64,000 nucleotides of DNA. Origin: Candidatus Poribacteria bacterium (GTDB lineage: Bacteria > Poribacteria > WGA-4E > WGA-3G). The stretch covers positions 3,488,001-3,552,000 of the forward strand of contig CBDANF010000003.1 in NCBI GenBank assembly GCA_965197475.1. Reading direction: 5' to 3'. Each line of letters starts with the position of its first letter. Position 1 is the first letter of the stretch. This document shows, one piece after another, positions 31,786-36,708 of this stretch. A model generated the notes under the pieces. The model was not told the origin of the DNA. It saw nothing but the letters and a program-made list of their open reading frames with translations, and did no database searches. Both the position numbers and the translations under genes were made by a program.

Positions 31786-34071
31786 ATGAAAATATTTCTG
31801 ACCGTACTTATTCTGTCTACCGTTTTTTCTCTAAACTCCTTTGCCGGATTTTTTGGTTCTGCTACCTTTGAAGGGCATACGGGTAAAGTTGATAGCGTCG
31901 CATTCAGTCCGGATGGCGAAATGCTCGTAAGTGGCGGTTGGGACAACACCGTCCGTCTGTGGAATGTTGCCACTCGTGAAAACATCCACACACTCAAAGG
32001 GCATACGGCTGAGGTCTATGCTGTGGCGTTCAGTCCGGATGGCAGAATAGTCGTAAGTGGGGGTTGGGACAACACAATCCGTTTGTGGGATGTCGTTACT
32101 GCTGAAAACATCCACACACTCAAAGGGCATACAGCTGCGATTTCTTCCTTAGCGTTTAGTCCTGATGGGAAGATACTCGCAAGCGGAAGTTATGACCGGA
32201 CTATCCGACTGTGGGATGTAGCTATTACTACAAACATTGCGACACTCACTGGGCATAAGGGTAGGGTCTTAACTGTGGCATTTAGTCCGGATGGCAAAAT
32301 GGTTGCAAGTGGGAGTTGGGACGACACCGTCCGTTTTTGGGATGTAGCCACTGCTGAGAACATCAACACAATCACAGAGCATCCGGGTGATGTCTGGAGT
32401 TTAGCGTTTAGCCCTGATGGCAAAACAATCGCAACTGGGGGTGAGACCCGCTATATCTATTTGTGGGATGTCGCCACTGCCGAAAAAATCAATACATTCA
32501 CCCAGAGTAACCAGGGTGCCCTTAGCGTGGCATTCAGTCCTGATGGAAAAACAATCGCAAGCGGGGTTTATCCCAGGGGCATCCAACTGTGGGAAATAGC
32601 CACTGCAAGAAGGATCGGTAGTTTTAGTGATACGTATCAAAAAATGAGTACGGTCGATAGTGTCGCATTCAGTCCAGACGGTAAAACAATCGCAACTGGG
32701 AGTTGGGACCCTACCGTCCGTCTATGGACTATCACCAGATGTTTTAAAATCACGCCCTATCCCATAGTATCTCCCGCAATCGGTGAGAGGTTTACTATCA
32801 ACATTGAAGCTGATATGGGACCAAAAGTACAGGAAGCCTATTTTAACTTATACTTTAATTCACGTGCCATTCGTTATGTTGAAACTACTGGCGGGGATTT
32901 AATATATCTTTCAAGTACTTTTGAGTCGGACTTTACCTATACAACCAGCCTAGGTTTCGTAAGGTTTGAATCACGTTTTGGTCCAGGCAAAGGCACATTG
33001 GCAAAAATAACCTTTGAGGTGATTGATGTAAGAGAATCTAATATCAGATTTCAAGGCATAGGTTATATAAACACGCCCTATCTCATTTATGAAGGAAAGA
33101 TTATACCACCCGAGTTCTCCTCTCCTGCTGTTGTCAGCATTACCCCATCCGAAGTGCTGTCTCCTGCTATCGGTGAGCAACTTGTTTTTAACGTTAATAT
33201 TGCCGACGGTCAAAATGTTGCACGTTCTGAGTTAACACTGGACTATGATCAGTCCGCTCTTAAAGAGATATCGCGCAGTGAGGGAAATTATCTGTCTGGT
33301 GAGATTGGCAACGGTGACGGCACACTTGAGACGATAACATTTGAAGTTCTTGATGTCAAAGCCTCAACTGTAAGTGTCTCTGGGTATCTGGTTGCTCCAA
33401 ATGGATATCGTTATGTTCCTACCTTTCAAAGTGCAGAGGTGATTGAACCGCTTCTGGGAGATGTTAACAGAGATGGAGTCGTGAGCATCTTGGACGTGGT
33501 CCAGGTTGCATCAAGTTTGGGACAGGTTTCAGCAGGCGGAAACCCCGCAGATGTCAATGAGGATGGTGTTGTCAATATTGTAGATATGATTACAGTCGCT
33601 GGGGCGATCAATGACGCAGCTGCTGCGCCTGCAGTGTGGAATCGCTACCAAGGGGTTGCTTTTACAAGTGACCGAGTGCAAAAGTGGCTATCCCAAGCAC
33701 AACAACTGGATTTGACAGATGCAATTGCACAAAAGGGCATTCTCTTTTTAGAAAATCTCTTAGCATTGTTGACACCGAAAGAGACAGCACTTCTACCGAA
33801 TTATCCAAATCCGTTCAACCCTGAAACGTGGATACCTTATCAATTAGCAGAACCCGCAGATGTAACGATTTCCATTTACGCAGTAGATGGAACAGTGATA
33901 CGTACCCTCAACCTTGGACATAAAACTGCGGGAATCTATCATGATCAAACCCGTGCGGCATATTGGGATGGTAAAAATGAAGTCGGTGAGGCGGTTGCAA
34001 GTGGTGTCTATTTCTATACTTTAACAGCAGGCAGCTTCAACTCTACGCGGAAGATGCTGATATGGAAATAG
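31786..34071 (+). CDS. Secreted WD40 beta-propeller protein with cohesin-like, dockerin and FlgD/T9SS-like C-terminal domains
   Basis: Signal peptide; 7 x GH...V..VAFSPDG..ASG.WD.T.RLW repeats; GDVNRDGVVSILD/ADVNEDGVVNIVD; NYPNPFNPETWIPY...WDGKNE.GE.VASGVYFY. Confidence 0.9.
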   Translation: MKIFLTVLILSTVFSLNSFAGFFGSATFEGHTGKVDSVAFSPDGEMLVSGGWDNTVRLWNVATRENIHTLKGHTAEVYAVAFSPDGRIVVSGGWDNTIRLWDVVTAENIHTLKGHTAAISSLAFSPDGKILASGSYDRTIRLWDVAITTNIATLTGHKGRVLTVAFSPDGKMVASGSWDDTVRFWDVATAENINTITEHPGDVWSLAFSPDGKTIATGGETRYIYLWDVATAEKINTFTQSNQGALSVAFSPDGKTIASGVYPRGIQLWEIATARRIGSFSDTYQKMSTVDSVAFSPDGKTIATGSWDPTVRLWTITRCFKITPYPIVSPAIGERFTINIEADMGPKVQEAYFNLYFNSRAIRYVETTGGDLIYLSSTFESDFTYTTSLGFVRFESRFGPGKGTLAKITFEVIDVRESNIRFQGIGYINTPYLIYEGKIIPPEFSSPAVVSITPSEVLSPAIGEQLVFNVNIADGQNVARSELTLDYDQSALKEISRSEGNYLSGEIGNGDGTLETITFEVLDVKASTVSVSGYLVAPNGYRYVPTFQSAEVIEPLLGDVNRDGVVSILDVVQVASSLGQVSAGGNPADVNEDGVVNIVDMITVAGAINDAAAAPAVWNRYQGVAFTSDRVQKWLSQAQQLDLTDAIAQKGILFLENLLALLTPKETALLPNYPNPFNPETWIPYQLAEPADVTISIYAVDGTVIRTLNLGHKTAGIYHDQTRAAYWDGKNEVGEAVASGVYFYTLTAGSFNSTRKMLIWK

Positions 34072-34197
34072 TATCAAATGACCATAGGATATCTGGAAGG
34101 TTGATGTTTATTGGCTTCCCAGCGATCATTAATGAGTGGGTTGCGTTGGGATCGCGAGCATCCTCTTTGAGAAATGATGCGTTTAGCGATAAACGTG
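34071..34197 (-). ncRNA. Putative element-encoded structured ncRNA (~125 nt, four stem-loops)
   Basis: Lies directly downstream of a near-consensus promoter; stems at 34180-34195, 34158-34180, 34122-34155 and 34093-34122. Confidence 0.5.
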
Positions 34198-34202
34198 TCT
34201 AA

Positions 34203-34231
34203 AGTATAGCAAAACCAGTAGCGGTTGTCAA
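34203..34231 (-). promoter_or_regulatory. Near-consensus sigma70 promoter inside the element, pointing toward the left TIR
   Basis: Minus strand TTGACA-accgctactggttttgc(17)-TATACT. Confidence 0.75.
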
Positions 34232-34298
34232 CCATATTTTCAAGGCACCTGCCCCGGTTTTGCGAAGTAAAGTTCGTCGGGAACATAGGATTAGGGTC

Positions 34299-35183
34299 TC
34301 ATTGGGCTTCTCCTTGGTGAGTGGCTTCATCGTTTGAGTCTGAATTGGCAAGGTCTGCATCTATGGCTTGGAGTTGGTGCTGCGGTATGAGGTCGAGATA
34401 TTGAGAGATGACGCGTTTAGAAAGTCGTGTAATCTGTGAGATTTTATCAATATCTGCGGTTGCTTTCCGAACGACTTTGACGCTCTCATAATCGCGAATG
34501 TATCTATCAACTGCCTCCTTAGAGTGTTTGGTCTTTGCGGCAATCCTGGGGGTGAGATGTCCTTGAAGATAGAGGGTTATGATCTCTTTCTTATGGGTAA
34601 TAGCCCCCGATAAGTCATGGATATTGCCACGGGTGGGCAAGAGTTCTCCAGTGGTTTTTTGCCATTCATTAACATAATCACAGACAACGGCATCGCAGAC
34701 ATTGAGCAAAACTGCCAAGTCGAGTTGTGTCAATAATGCCCCTTGGTCATAAGCTTGATGACACCAGCGGACCAAGCGATTGATCCGCAATTGCCGGGAG
34801 GTGAAACCGTTGCGAAAGGATTCAATATCCTCTGCGGCGAGGTAAGTCAGGATGACGGGTTTCATGCGGGTTTTGACGATGGACTTTCCTCTTTCTGGAT
34901 GCTCTTCAATAGGGACGGCCATCCAAACGAGTTGTCCATAACTCAAGAAACGCTCATCCGGGAGTTGATCGCCGGTGGCGAGTTTCTCCAAAGGAAGGGT
35001 AATCACGAAATAGTCTTCAACGGTCTTAAGAATATCATCAACAATGGCGGTGGCAGTGACTTCGCCTTTGTCATAACCATAGTCATTGAGAAAGCGGTGA
35101 ATGAGCAACTGTCGTAGGGACTTATCGTTGATGCGTCTGAATTTCTTCTCGTTGATTTGCGTGCGGGTTAGAGGTTTGCTCAT
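34299..35183 (-). CDS. DUF1670-like protein (paralog B)
   Basis: RL.RWCHQAYDQGALLTQLDLAVLL...LPTRGNIHDLSGAITHK..II.LYLQG...HS.EAVDRYI.D. Confidence 0.8.
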   Translation of the reverse strand: MSKPLTRTQINEKKFRRINDKSLRQLLIHRFLNDYGYDKGEVTATAIVDDILKTVEDYFVITLPLEKLATGDQLPDERFLSYGQLVWMAVPIEEHPERGKSIVKTRMKPVILTYLAAEDIESFRNGFTSRQLRINRLVRWCHQAYDQGALLTQLDLAVLLNVCDAVVCDYVNEWQKTTGELLPTRGNIHDLSGAITHKKEIITLYLQGHLTPRIAAKTKHSKEAVDRYIRDYESVKVVRKATADIDKISQITRLSKRVISQYLDLIPQHQLQAIDADLANSDSNDEATHQGEAQ

Positions 35184-35980
35184 GAGAGGTCCCCCTTTTT
35201 TGTGTCCTCAGGTTCTGGGTGAAGGAGTTGGGTCATGCGATCTGTGTGTTGGTATTCCTCATAGAGTGAGAGATACTCGCGGATCAACCGGTCAGATAGA
35301 TGGGTGATCAGGCGTATCTGTGCGTTAGGAAAGCCTTGATGATGGAGCGTAGCGACTTGTGTAAAGTCTTTCAAGTAGCGGTAGACAGCTCGTTCGCTGT
35401 GGTTCGTCTTTTTCTCGATTTCGGTGAAGGTATAGGCTTTGAAATATAACTCCAGGACCTGGGTTTTATGAGAAGTGCCGGGGCCCATGTCGTGTTTCGT
35501 CCCGCGCGTCATAACGAAATACCCATCCTGCTTCAAGTGTCGAATGTCGCGTTTGACTGTAGCAGGACTGGTGGTTAATAATACAGCTAAATCCTCGTAG
35601 CTCAGTAAGGCATCTTGGTCATAAGCTTCTTGGGTCAATCGGAGGATCCGATGCCGTCTGAGTCCTGCGAGACCATAATTCGCTAAGACTTCAAGATCGG
35701 CGTTTGTGTCATTGAGAGTTAGCCGACAGGAAACTTTTTTCGCTAAAGCGATATGTTTACCTGCGGGTTCCTCTGCGGCGACTGCCTCGTAGCAGATTTG
35801 CCCTGATGTCAGGTGCACATCGGCGTGTTGTTCAAAGTAGGTGGAAATCTGTTTATAGTAGGCTTCAGCAACGAGAGGCATTAGATTAAAGTCTGCTGAA
35901 ATCTTCTGAATAATCGCGGCTCTGGCATTCTTGGATTCGAGCCGAGTGATACCGTAAGCGGTATCCTTCTTGCGGTTCAT
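35180..35980 (-). CDS. DUF1670-like protein (paralog A)
   Basis: RILRLTQEAYDQDALLSYEDLA.LL.TS..TVKRDI...TRG.KHDMGPG.SHK...HS..AV.RYL.DF; GGAGG RBS; ATGA coupling to paralog B. Confidence 0.8.
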   Translation of the reverse strand: MNRKKDTAYGITRLESKNARAAIIQKISADFNLMPLVAEAYYKQISTYFEQHADVHLTSGQICYEAVAAEEPAGKHIALAKKVSCRLTLNDTNADLEVLANYGLAGLRRHRILRLTQEAYDQDALLSYEDLAVLLTTSPATVKRDIRHLKQDGYFVMTRGTKHDMGPGTSHKTQVLELYFKAYTFTEIEKKTNHSERAVYRYLKDFTQVATLHHQGFPNAQIRLITHLSDRLIREYLSLYEEYQHTDRMTQLLHPEPEDTKKGDLS

Positions 35981-36120
35981 ATCGACCTCCATGAATAGAT
36001 TATCGGGGATCCGAGGACATCTACTCGTTAGTTTAACGAATACTAATAGTATAACTCATGGGGTCATTTGATACAAACTATAAGTAAACTCCACTCATTA
36101 AACAAGCAGGAGAAACATTA

Positions 36121-36708
36121 ATGGACATCTTGCATAGCGTTCGTAATGCGCTGTTAGATGCACAGGACGTGCTTAATCGGTTTATCCAAAACCCTGACAA
36201 TATCGCAATCATTGCCGAAACAGCAGCCCTGATGCGAGACGTTTTTGAACAGCAGGGAAGAATCTTTACGTGTGGCAATGGTGGCAGTTTGTGCGATGCC
36301 ATCCACTTTGCAGAAGAGTGCACCGGAAAGTTTCGGGATAATCGGAAACCTCTTCCTGTTATTGCGCTAAGCGATGCAGGGCATATCACCTGCACAGCAA
36401 ACGATTTCGGGTTTGCGGAGGTGTTCGCTCGTCCACTGCTGGCACTTGGACACCCCGGTGATCTGTTAGTGGCACTCTCAACAAGTGGTAATTCGGAAAA
36501 TGTTGTTCGTGCGGCTGAAGCAGCAAAATCACGACAGATGCACGTGTTCGGGTTGATCGGTAGAGATGGCGGAAGGCTCAAACACCATTGTAATACTTAC
36601 CTAATTGCGCCTGGTGATACCGCAGATCGGATACAGGAAATCCATATTAAGGTATTACATATTTTGATTGAGCATATTGAACGACTAATGTTTCCTGAGA
36701 ATTATTGA
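36121..36708 (+). CDS. gmhA: D-sedoheptulose-7-phosphate isomerase
   Basis: CGNGGSLCDAIHFAEE, TCTANDFGF, LSTSGNSENV, ADRIQEIHIKVLH. Confidence 0.93.
   Translation: MDILHSVRNALLDAQDVLNRFIQNPDNIAIIAETAALMRDVFEQQGRIFTCGNGGSLCDAIHFAEECTGKFRDNRKPLPVIALSDAGHITCTANDFGFAEVFARPLLALGHPGDLLVALSTSGNSENVVRAAEAAKSRQMHVFGLIGRDGGRLKHHCNTYLIAPGDTADRIQEIHIKVLHILIEHIERLMFPENY

Follow-up and report, generated by a model that had tools for sequence, protein, structure and literature searches.

A conserved promoter and partly structured right end in a DUF1670 mobile element of Candidatus Poribacteria: most likely an accessory or regulatory RNA or leader rather than an insertion guide

Introduction

RNAs encoded at transposon ends, the bridge RNAs and omegaRNAs, have recently been shown to be guides, and the right-end RNAs of IS200/IS605 elements carry sequence of the flank. 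The ends of insertion sequences (IS) can also hold other signals. In IS10/Tn10, the small stem-loop RNA known as RNA-OUT is made from an outward-reading promoter near the IS end, and junction promoters are an established paradigm for circle-forming insertion sequences, those of the Pjunc type in IS3, IS30 and IS256 being split, with the -35 box in one end and the -10 box in the other. According to PMC11208160, the two loops of bridge RNAs covary with and base-pair to target and donor, and the promoter of IS110 is rebuilt on circularisation. Long promoter-bearing non-coding ends are worth testing for guides, and here we analyse one of them, the right end of a DUF1670 mobile element on the minus strand of a 64,000-nt stretch of contig CBDANF010000003.1 (this whole stretch is called the window below). 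The element is multicopy in the genome of the sponge-symbiont Candidatus Poribacteria from which the window comes, with 20 copies of a ~2-kb two-gene unit. An original prediction had read its right end as an element-encoded RNA cofactor, possibly of guide type, with a dedicated promoter and four hairpins. The features that it described were confirmed, and its interpretation was upheld in part. The outcome reported here is mostly negative for a guide, and in this uncharacterised element family it is positive for a right-end RNA or leader that is promoter-driven and under selection.

Results and discussion

A near-consensus promoter at a fixed place in the right end

The evidence on a guide role is mostly negative, and the right end most likely gives rise to a selected, lineage-specific and promoter-driven RNA or leader whose role would be accessory or regulatory. 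The two genes of the element, ORF1 and ORF2 (ORF, open reading frame), lie upstream on the same minus strand and are followed in the window copy by a tail 228 nt long, which contains a promoter reading toward the right end:

34203..34231, minus strand: sigma-70-type promoter TTGACA-17-TATACT with TG extension, 11/12 in the promoter scan (-35 TTGACA at 34231-34226; 17-nt spacer; TG at 34211-34210; -10 TATACT at 34208-34203)

The original prediction had described TTGACA-N17-TATACT as a dedicated promoter with no credible ORF after it, and this was borne out, all the described features being found where they had been placed. The promoter is near-consensus and is more than a chance match. A genome-wide scan at a threshold of at least 11/12 gave 602 sites in 11.4 Mb, both strands counted (~0.053 per kb on each strand), 19 of which are tails of the DUF1670 element. 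The TG extension is present in 209/602 of these sites versus about 1 in 16 expected, so that the organism appears to use the extended -10 promoter type. Across Poribacteria elements, the distance from the right end to a -10 box of the form T[AG]TA[CA]T is fixed in 64/64 tails, namely 137-142 nt in the long ones and 105-109 nt in a short-tail subfamily. Among the 49 unique tails, the -10 box is almost always TATACT after TG, and the -35 box is mostly TTGACA, TTGGCA or TTGATA. Transcription is likely to start at this promoter, with a predicted first nucleotide at about 34196 (34194-34198), some 7 nt past TATACT.

Regarding coding potential, the start of a 70-aa ORF (34286-34074) precedes the promoter, its product matches nothing in Pfam, and relatives have 1-nt indels and stop codons there. 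A micro-ORF within the tail (MLAIPTQPTH, 10 aa) was rejected, as several clades have lost it or interrupt it with stop codons. Around the -35 box, a short dyad at 34222-34234 of the window (minus strand) covaries between clades (GGTTGACAACC, GGGTTGACACCC, GGCTTGACACGCC and GGCTTGGCACGCC), and it may represent an operator or, on either strand, a small hairpin.

Conservation and hairpins of the tail

From the -35 box to the right end, 13 element pairs are 59-87% identical, versus 33-72% at the fourfold-degenerate ORF2 sites of the same pairs, which indicates that the tail is under purifying selection. Natural deletion variants, with tails of 156-193 nt, have lost sequence between ORF2 and the promoter and kept everything from the -35 box onward. 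Tails of related elements in Gemmatimonadota, Ignavibacteria and Bacteroidetes are 48-132 nt long and show no comparable promoter by eye. They score 16-21 bits against the tail model, no higher than left ends do, versus 49-148 bits for the Poribacteria tails. Judged from these sequences, the Poribacteria clade of DUF1670 elements has gained the tail as a lineage-specific extension of its right end. The tail also shares a 20-nt direct repeat (18/20 identical) with ORF2, matching 34167-34186 (CTAAACGCATCATTTCTCAA) to 34401-34420, the codons for SKRVISQ. When the tail was compared with the last 182 nt of ORF2, 0/1000 shuffled tails scored as high.

All four stems of the original prediction are present in the sequence where it had put them, and the last of them can be extended into a longer hairpin. 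The stems are listed here with mean pairwise identities among 12 clade representatives, in which the terminal inverted repeat is invariant (1.00):

34195-34190 and 34185-34180, minus strand: hairpin 1, CGTTTA/TAAACG, directly past the predicted start (identity 0.55)
34180-34158, minus strand: hairpin 2, GCATC..CTC-AAA-GAG..GATGC, kept mainly by sequence conservation (identity 0.72)
34155-34150 and 34127-34122, minus strand: hairpin 3, GCGATC/GATCGC with a 22-nt loop, unsupported as a conserved helix
34122-34115 and 34099-34093, minus strand: hairpin 4, CTGGGAAG/CTTCCAG with a 15-nt loop
34088..34127, minus strand: long subterminal hairpin (the terminal hairpin below), which is hairpin 4 extended by GAT/ATC, with loop CCAATAAACATCAAC, ending 4 nt before the inverted repeat (identity 0.76 and 0.81 in the arms, 0.67 in the loop)

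Hairpin 1 covaries at 4/6 pairs and contributes most of all the covariation, one pair, for example, being UA in 21 sequences and GC in 10. Its sequence is fully changed between clades with the pairing retained, and its count of G-U versus A-C cells on the predicted RNA strand (32 to 11) is in its favour. Hairpin 2 has 78-96% of its cells paired, depending on helix and alignment, and is deleted in the short-tail subfamily (L084-L099), so that it is dispensable there. The terminal hairpin has 84-89% of cells paired, with 0-1 of its 11 pairs changed on both sides, and is predicted in 8/10 single-sequence folds of clade representatives, being absent from the fold of L059 and variant in that of L064. 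Hairpin 3, whose 3' arm shares bases with the 5' arm of the terminal hairpin, has 62.3% of cells paired versus a shuffled mean of 61.2%, and 119/500 shuffles reach as high. The proposed four hairpins are thus upheld by covariation for hairpin 1 and mainly by sequence conservation for hairpins 2 and 4, and dropped for hairpin 3, which does not rise above shuffle level.

Taken together, hairpins 1, 2 and 4 have 82.7% of cells paired versus 79.4% in shuffles, and 29 cells changed on both sides versus 13.6 (0/500 shuffles as high in either case). An alternative structure has 88.1% of cells paired versus 85.9%, with 17 both-side-changed cells versus 6.4, again with 0/500 as high for both measures. 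Slid controls are paired at 32-57% (32-46% for hairpins 1, 2 and 4). With ribosum scoring, RNAalifold on 40 long tails recovered a helix ATCGC/GCGAT, hairpin 2 and the long terminal hairpin, the first of these being a long-range pairing of the hairpin 1 loop (ATCGC) with GCGAT that competes with hairpin 1. The folds of ten clade representatives had z scores of -0.09 to -4.08, with 7/10 below -2. Rfam 15 covariance models gave 0 matches at E <= 1 on both strands of window positions 33500-36500.

Insertion site and the question of a guide

The element inserts at the ends of genes whose products terminate in ...[KRQ][MLIVF]xxx[KR], which we take to be the C-terminal sorting domain (CTD) type of the type IX secretion system (T9SS). 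The gene hit by the window copy is the following:

31786..34071, plus strand: target gene for a WD40-repeat protein with a T9SS-CTD-like C-terminus, ...STRKMLIWK

The element restores the stop codon TAG (34069-34071) of this gene by supplying the final G as its own first base. The right end adjoins the last codon of such a gene in 18/20 copies of the same genome, and insertion at a T9SS-CTD-like stop codon in the same orientation (for example ...RKMLILK and stop) was found in 59/68 evaluable loci of other genomes. These loci include all five placeable elements from outside Poribacteria, located at CTD stop codons (L122 of Gemmatimonadota; L129, L130 and L132 of Ignavibacteria; L131 of Bacteroidetes). 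Insertion is strictly orientation-specific, the element being convergent to the target gene, and from the junctions the target would be TTATTT, which reads AAATAA on the strand of the gene. In the element's own genome (G000), 27 CTD-like gene ends passed a strict filter. The occupied ones (10/27) all read AAATAG, and the unoccupied ones mostly end in AAG-TAA or AAG-TAG, with AAG as the last lysine and thus without TTATTT, AAATAA being present in only 2. Suitable targets in this genome look nearly saturated. Poribacteria clade B (L109-L112 and L115, from G035, G026 and others) has a different target, by TTATTT in the loop of a repeated hairpin GAAACCGAGTTTT...AAAACTCGGTTTC. The hairpin formed by GAAACCGAGTTTT and AAAACTCGGTTTC is a REP-like (repetitive extragenic palindromic) repeat.

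The original prediction likened its RNA cofactor to bridge RNAs and omegaRNAs. As a guide of either type, the tail would pair with target or donor DNA through its loops or a flank-copied 3' extension and so direct insertion. Several features agree with this. The non-coding end is long and carries a promoter of its own. Target specificity is high, and no catalytic fold is recognisable in either protein. Flank sequence would be part of any RNA that continues past the right end, and loop 2 (AATAAACATC) matches the target consensus (AATCAACATC) by eye at 9/10 positions. Nevertheless, what had been called large guide loops are conserved rather than variable and are among the better-conserved parts of the tail. 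With a position-weight matrix made from 35 CTD-type flanks, against which 13 tails were scanned on both strands, the score of the real tail was reached by 10 to 181 of 200 shuffles, so that the match between tail and target is at shuffle level. Near-identical tails occur in different targets, L094 (at a CTD stop codon) and L112 (in a hairpin-type target) being identical at 127/133 tail positions, and L115 combines an A-type loop with a hairpin-type target. The right flanks of the nine youngest copies of the genome (at least 99.5% identical) share a mean of 12.8/20 positions, with a minimum of 5, which speaks against strict base-pair guidance by a flank-copied segment. The five elements of three other phyla hit CTD stop codons with tail-model scores of only 16-21 bits, indicating that target choice is independent of this tail. 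Moreover, the Pfam scan of ORF1 and ORF2 found no DEDD/RuvC, TnpB or IscB domain. A guide of either type is accordingly very improbable.

It is also improbable that the Poribacteria tail RNA acts as a fixed, non-programmable subunit of the transposition complex in an autonomous site- and orientation-specific transposon, whether as a scaffold marking the right end or through a short flank-derived 3' extension that would bias the capture of new T9SS-CTD stop-codon sites. Such a fixed subunit would explain why nearly identical tails are found in a different repeated target.

Proposed right-end RNA and the points against it

The RNA from the tail promoter could itself be the functional product, an accessory or regulatory RNA of the Poribacteria clade, a proposal that we put forward tentatively. 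It would start near 34196, ~7 nt past TATACT, and read outward. At least ~125 nt long, it would form the 5' hairpin first and the long subterminal hairpin by the right inverted repeat, and would then continue past the element end as an antisense transcript of the flanking T9SS-CTD-like gene. Recognition of its conserved loops would fall to the winged-helix proteins of the element or to a host factor, with no role as a programmable guide to the insertion site. We infer that RNA rather than DNA would be the active form, and the position of the RNA end and the process that it would regulate are proposed in the same sense.

Several findings weigh against such an RNA. Relatives in three other phyla without this tail share the same ends and the same target, so the tail RNA cannot be essential to the chemistry of the family. 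The fold of the window copy is unremarkable (minimum free energy -24.2 kcal/mol, z -1.32; 20/200 shuffles fold at least as well), and default RNAalifold on 47 tails gives essentially no consensus fold (-0.21 kcal/mol), which also tells against the four hairpins as first proposed. Hairpins 1, 2 and 4 have 8 both-side-changed pairs versus 5.6 in shuffles (26/500 as high), and the alternative structure has only 5 (169/500 as high). The covariance check that the original prediction suggested therefore gave a divided answer, with covariation in hairpin 1 and a count of both-side-changed pairs at shuffle level; the 40 tails behind the covariance model amount to an effective sequence number of only 2.11, too small to settle the structure. 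G-U versus A-C cells show no consistent strand bias, being 33 to 33 in hairpin 2 and 14 to 28 in the terminal hairpin. The RNA-library evidence consists of Logan contigs only, which do not prove transcription and in which strand, start, end and level are unreadable: 14 RNA-library runs from sponge metatranscriptomes contain the stretch, contigs of 4 runs from 4 studies cover the tail, a point in favour of the RNA, those of 2/4 examined runs cover the whole element, and junction-spanning contigs exist. One of these contigs (X10, 34132-34455) runs unbroken from ORF2 into the tail, so that the tail may also, or solely, be a 3' untranslated region (UTR).

Some further readings of the libraries were set aside. 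An identical 165-nt contig in X2 and X5 (34067-34231) was rejected as a record of RNA ends because it ends where the copies diverge. Uncovered bins, namely part of ORF1 in X2 and X5 together with the adjacent SIS gene, were not taken as evidence, nor was the greater depth in the terminal bin. Pairing of the tail RNA with the ORF1 leader was also rejected, with 157/300 shuffles as high, and duplex scores against the whole mRNA were disregarded because their interior loops were unrealistically long.

If the tail were a 3' UTR, its hairpins would stabilise or terminate the ORF1-ORF2 mRNA or, on the other strand, supply a replacement 3' end for the interrupted host gene. The unbroken contig from ORF2 into the tail is consistent with this, and in the scan the stretch from ORF2 to the element end has no terminator-like site on this minus strand. 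The tails of Ignavibacteria relatives have a canonical terminator-like hairpin in the same place, and the excess of A-C over G-U in the terminal hairpin would suit the opposite strand. However, the conserved promoter between ORF2 and the hairpins would be left unexplained, and no U-tract lies past any hairpin on either strand, which makes this explanation quite unlikely.

The tail could alternatively act as DNA, with subterminal sites for the two helix-turn-helix proteins or for a host architectural protein that would distinguish the right end from the left and thereby fix the insertion orientation, the promoter-like motif being incidental or secondary. Both proteins are (winged) helix-turn-helix arrays, insertion is strictly orientation-specific, and the tail sequence, loops included, is conserved more than its pairing covaries. 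The overall balance of G-U and A-C counts, without strand bias, also fits DNA, and so does a 432-bp copy resembling a miniature inverted-repeat transposable element (MITE), which retains the last 151 nt at 99% identity. In addition, an inverted-repeat-like motif CTCAT-N4-GAT is found ~45 nt in from the end; in the B clade, where alone it is exact, it reads TCATTTGAT. A role as DNA sites is nevertheless unlikely, since near-consensus -35 and -10 boxes with TG at fixed spacing in all 64 tails would remain unexplained, and the replacement of the hairpin 1 sequence between clades with its pairing kept is unlike the evolution of protein sites.

Circle junctions and a possible role of the promoter alone

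A further alternative, raised for a circle junction by the original prediction and considered somewhat unlikely here, is that the promoter and not its RNA product matters, either driving ORF1 and ORF2 across the junction of a circle or tandem dimer or opposing read-in from the host. In that case the tail would be leader sequence or DNA acting in cis. The paradigm comes from insertion sequences that form circles and have junction promoters, as PMC11208160 states for IS110. The tail promoter is also much the closer to consensus of two candidates, 11/12 versus 8/12 for a left-end motif with a variable -10 box, and the element is convergent to the target gene with its right end at the stop codon in the 18/20 and 59/68 loci given above, so that host read-in is to be expected. 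On the other hand, no junction of right end with left end was found in the 4 RNA runs, a scan of JGI metagenome contigs, the own genome or 155 loci, contigs and assemblies in which rare circles are poorly shown. A complete promoter can fire without a junction, and the conserved loops and the covarying 5' hairpin would be left unexplained.

The left-end motif (36040-36060 of the window, minus strand) reads TTGTAT-17-TATACT. Its score of 8/12 was counted by hand, and it is absent from the list of the promoter scan. Its -10 box is TATACT, TAAACT or TACACT among 45 unique left ends. The motif shares bases with the inverted repeat, and a small hairpin GATG..CATC comes next, a layout resembling that of the tail promoter. 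The sole match in the JGI metagenome scan (L143:6300-6353) is an unrelated perfect palindrome with the 13-nt inverted-repeat sequence in both arms and a 22-nt spacer, judged to be a chance match or a terminator-like hairpin.

The element, its copies and its two proteins

The other features of the window copy are as follows:

34071..36079, minus strand: whole DUF1670 mobile element, a 2004-bp repeat unit between inverted repeats plus a conserved 5-nt left extension AGTTT
34071..34083, minus strand: right terminal inverted repeat GGTCATTTGATAC, 13 nt, 100% complementary to 36062-36074
36062..36074, minus strand: left terminal inverted repeat GTATCAAATGACC, the perfect 13-nt partner of the right repeat
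35180..35992, minus strand: ORF1, 270-aa DUF1670 protein (Pfam PF07900, E 4e-62)
34299..35183, minus strand: ORF2, 294-aa DUF1670 protein (Pfam PF07900, E 1.2e-61)

The 20 copies of the genome comprise 18 full-length ones (92-100% identity), one with an internal deletion and the MITE-like one of 432 bp. With a slash for the junction, those common to all copies read T/TATAGTTTGTATC on the left and GATAC/TATTT on the right, and across loci the ends TTATAGTTTGTATCAAATGACC and GGTCATTTGATAC/TATTT are kept. Read from these common junctions, the left extension AGTTT would be part of the element. The window copy has TAT on both flanks (34068-34070 and 36080-36082), a possible 3-bp target duplication as far as the junction sequences alone can tell. 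An empty site that would prove it was not recovered, either with the SIS-gene flank in 9 relatives, where the gene has another upstream neighbour, or with the left flank of copy L005 in 5 genomes, where it had no match.

The MITE-like derivative (G000:C3:94120-94551; L020/L021) consists of nt 1-286 at 88% identity and the last 151 nt. It is without the -35 box, has TG-TATACT and the whole tail, and is located at a CTD stop codon. Two other copies (L014 and L016) have an identical 60-nt left flank and differing right flanks, which suggests recombination between copies or a duplication, and the right flanks of L011 and L015 are nearly identical. Truncated right-end remnants comprising the last 95-165 nt occur at CTD stop codons in genomes with no ORF2 match (L150, L151, L154 and L155 in G007, G023, G017 and G013, respectively), and L154 and L155 are interrupted by another repeat containing AATGCGTAAGTCCTG. 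Solo tails had been considered as MITEs in genomes without ORF2, and this was rejected, the matches being truncated remnants.

In the Pfam scan, ORF1 and ORF2 matched PF07900 (DUF1670) and helix-turn-helix families only. Their AlphaFold models (predicted local distance difference test score 86.9 for ORF2 and 71.5 for ORF1) are both (winged) helix-turn-helix arrays with one small beta hairpin. Foldseek of the two models against the PDB gave no match at E <= 0.001, the weak top rows being MntR, sigma region 4 and TFIIB-like, Pax and SelB winged-helix domains, and searches of NCBIfam, PDB sequences and the ESM Atlas gave weak helix-turn-helix-type matches at most. On these models, neither protein shows a known transposase or recombinase fold. 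The invariant residues among ORF2 homologues include P183, H197, K198, H220 and Y228. Four proteins of 930-952 aa (P0133, P0135, P0141 and P0143), each with three DUF1670-like stretches at ~30% identity, may be fused triple forms of the family.

In the library searched, no publication mentions DUF1670 or PF07900, and the one paper retrieved for insertion sequences at T9SS-CTD stop codons looked unrelated by its title and the opening of its abstract. The DUF1670 family inserts precisely at T9SS-CTD-like stop codons in at least four phyla and restores the stop, with no recognisable recombinase or transposase fold. The element itself, site-specific without a recognisable catalytic protein, is more striking than its tail, and the function of the tail provides a tractable entry point into how the DUF1670 element moves.

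Comparison with known systems

Compared with the bridge RNA (seekRNA) of IS110/IS1111 elements (PMC11208160), the DUF1670 element is alike in having a long non-coding end with a sigma-70-type promoter and a predicted, partly structured RNA, and in inserting site-specifically into repeated targets. The differences concern nearly every other feature. The DUF1670 loops are conserved and have no target match above chance, and its proteins are helix-turn-helix arrays instead of a recombinase with DEDD RuvC-like (PF01548) and Tnp (PF02371) domains. The tail promoter is complete in the integrated copy and not rebuilt across a junction, and the element has a perfect 13-bp inverted repeat, whereas IS110/IS1111 elements are typically without inverted repeats.

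The likeness to the omegaRNA of TnpB/IscB in IS200/IS605 elements, which PMC11208160 mentions, is that the RNA is located at the 3' (right) end and would run into flanking DNA. Unlike in IS200/IS605, no TnpB or IscB gene lies beside the DUF1670 tail and no Rfam family matches it, and the flanks of near-identical copies differ more (12.8/20) than strict base-pair guidance by a flank-copied segment would suggest. As with the Pjunc promoters of IS3, IS30 and IS256, a strong promoter at the end of the DUF1670 element would raise expression once the ends are joined. In contrast to these split promoters, that of the tail is complete and lies ~130 nt in from the end, ahead of a leader that is conserved and partly structured.

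IS10 and its proteins are unrelated to the DUF1670 element. RNA-OUT overlaps the 5' end of the transposase mRNA in antisense, whereas the DUF1670 promoter comes after both genes and reads on the same strand as they do. The tail RNA therefore cannot pair with the element mRNA and would be antisense to the host target gene instead. Like IS10, nevertheless, the DUF1670 element contains a complete promoter inside the element near one end and reading toward that end, and its product would be a short, hairpin-rich non-coding RNA that is regulatory rather than guiding.

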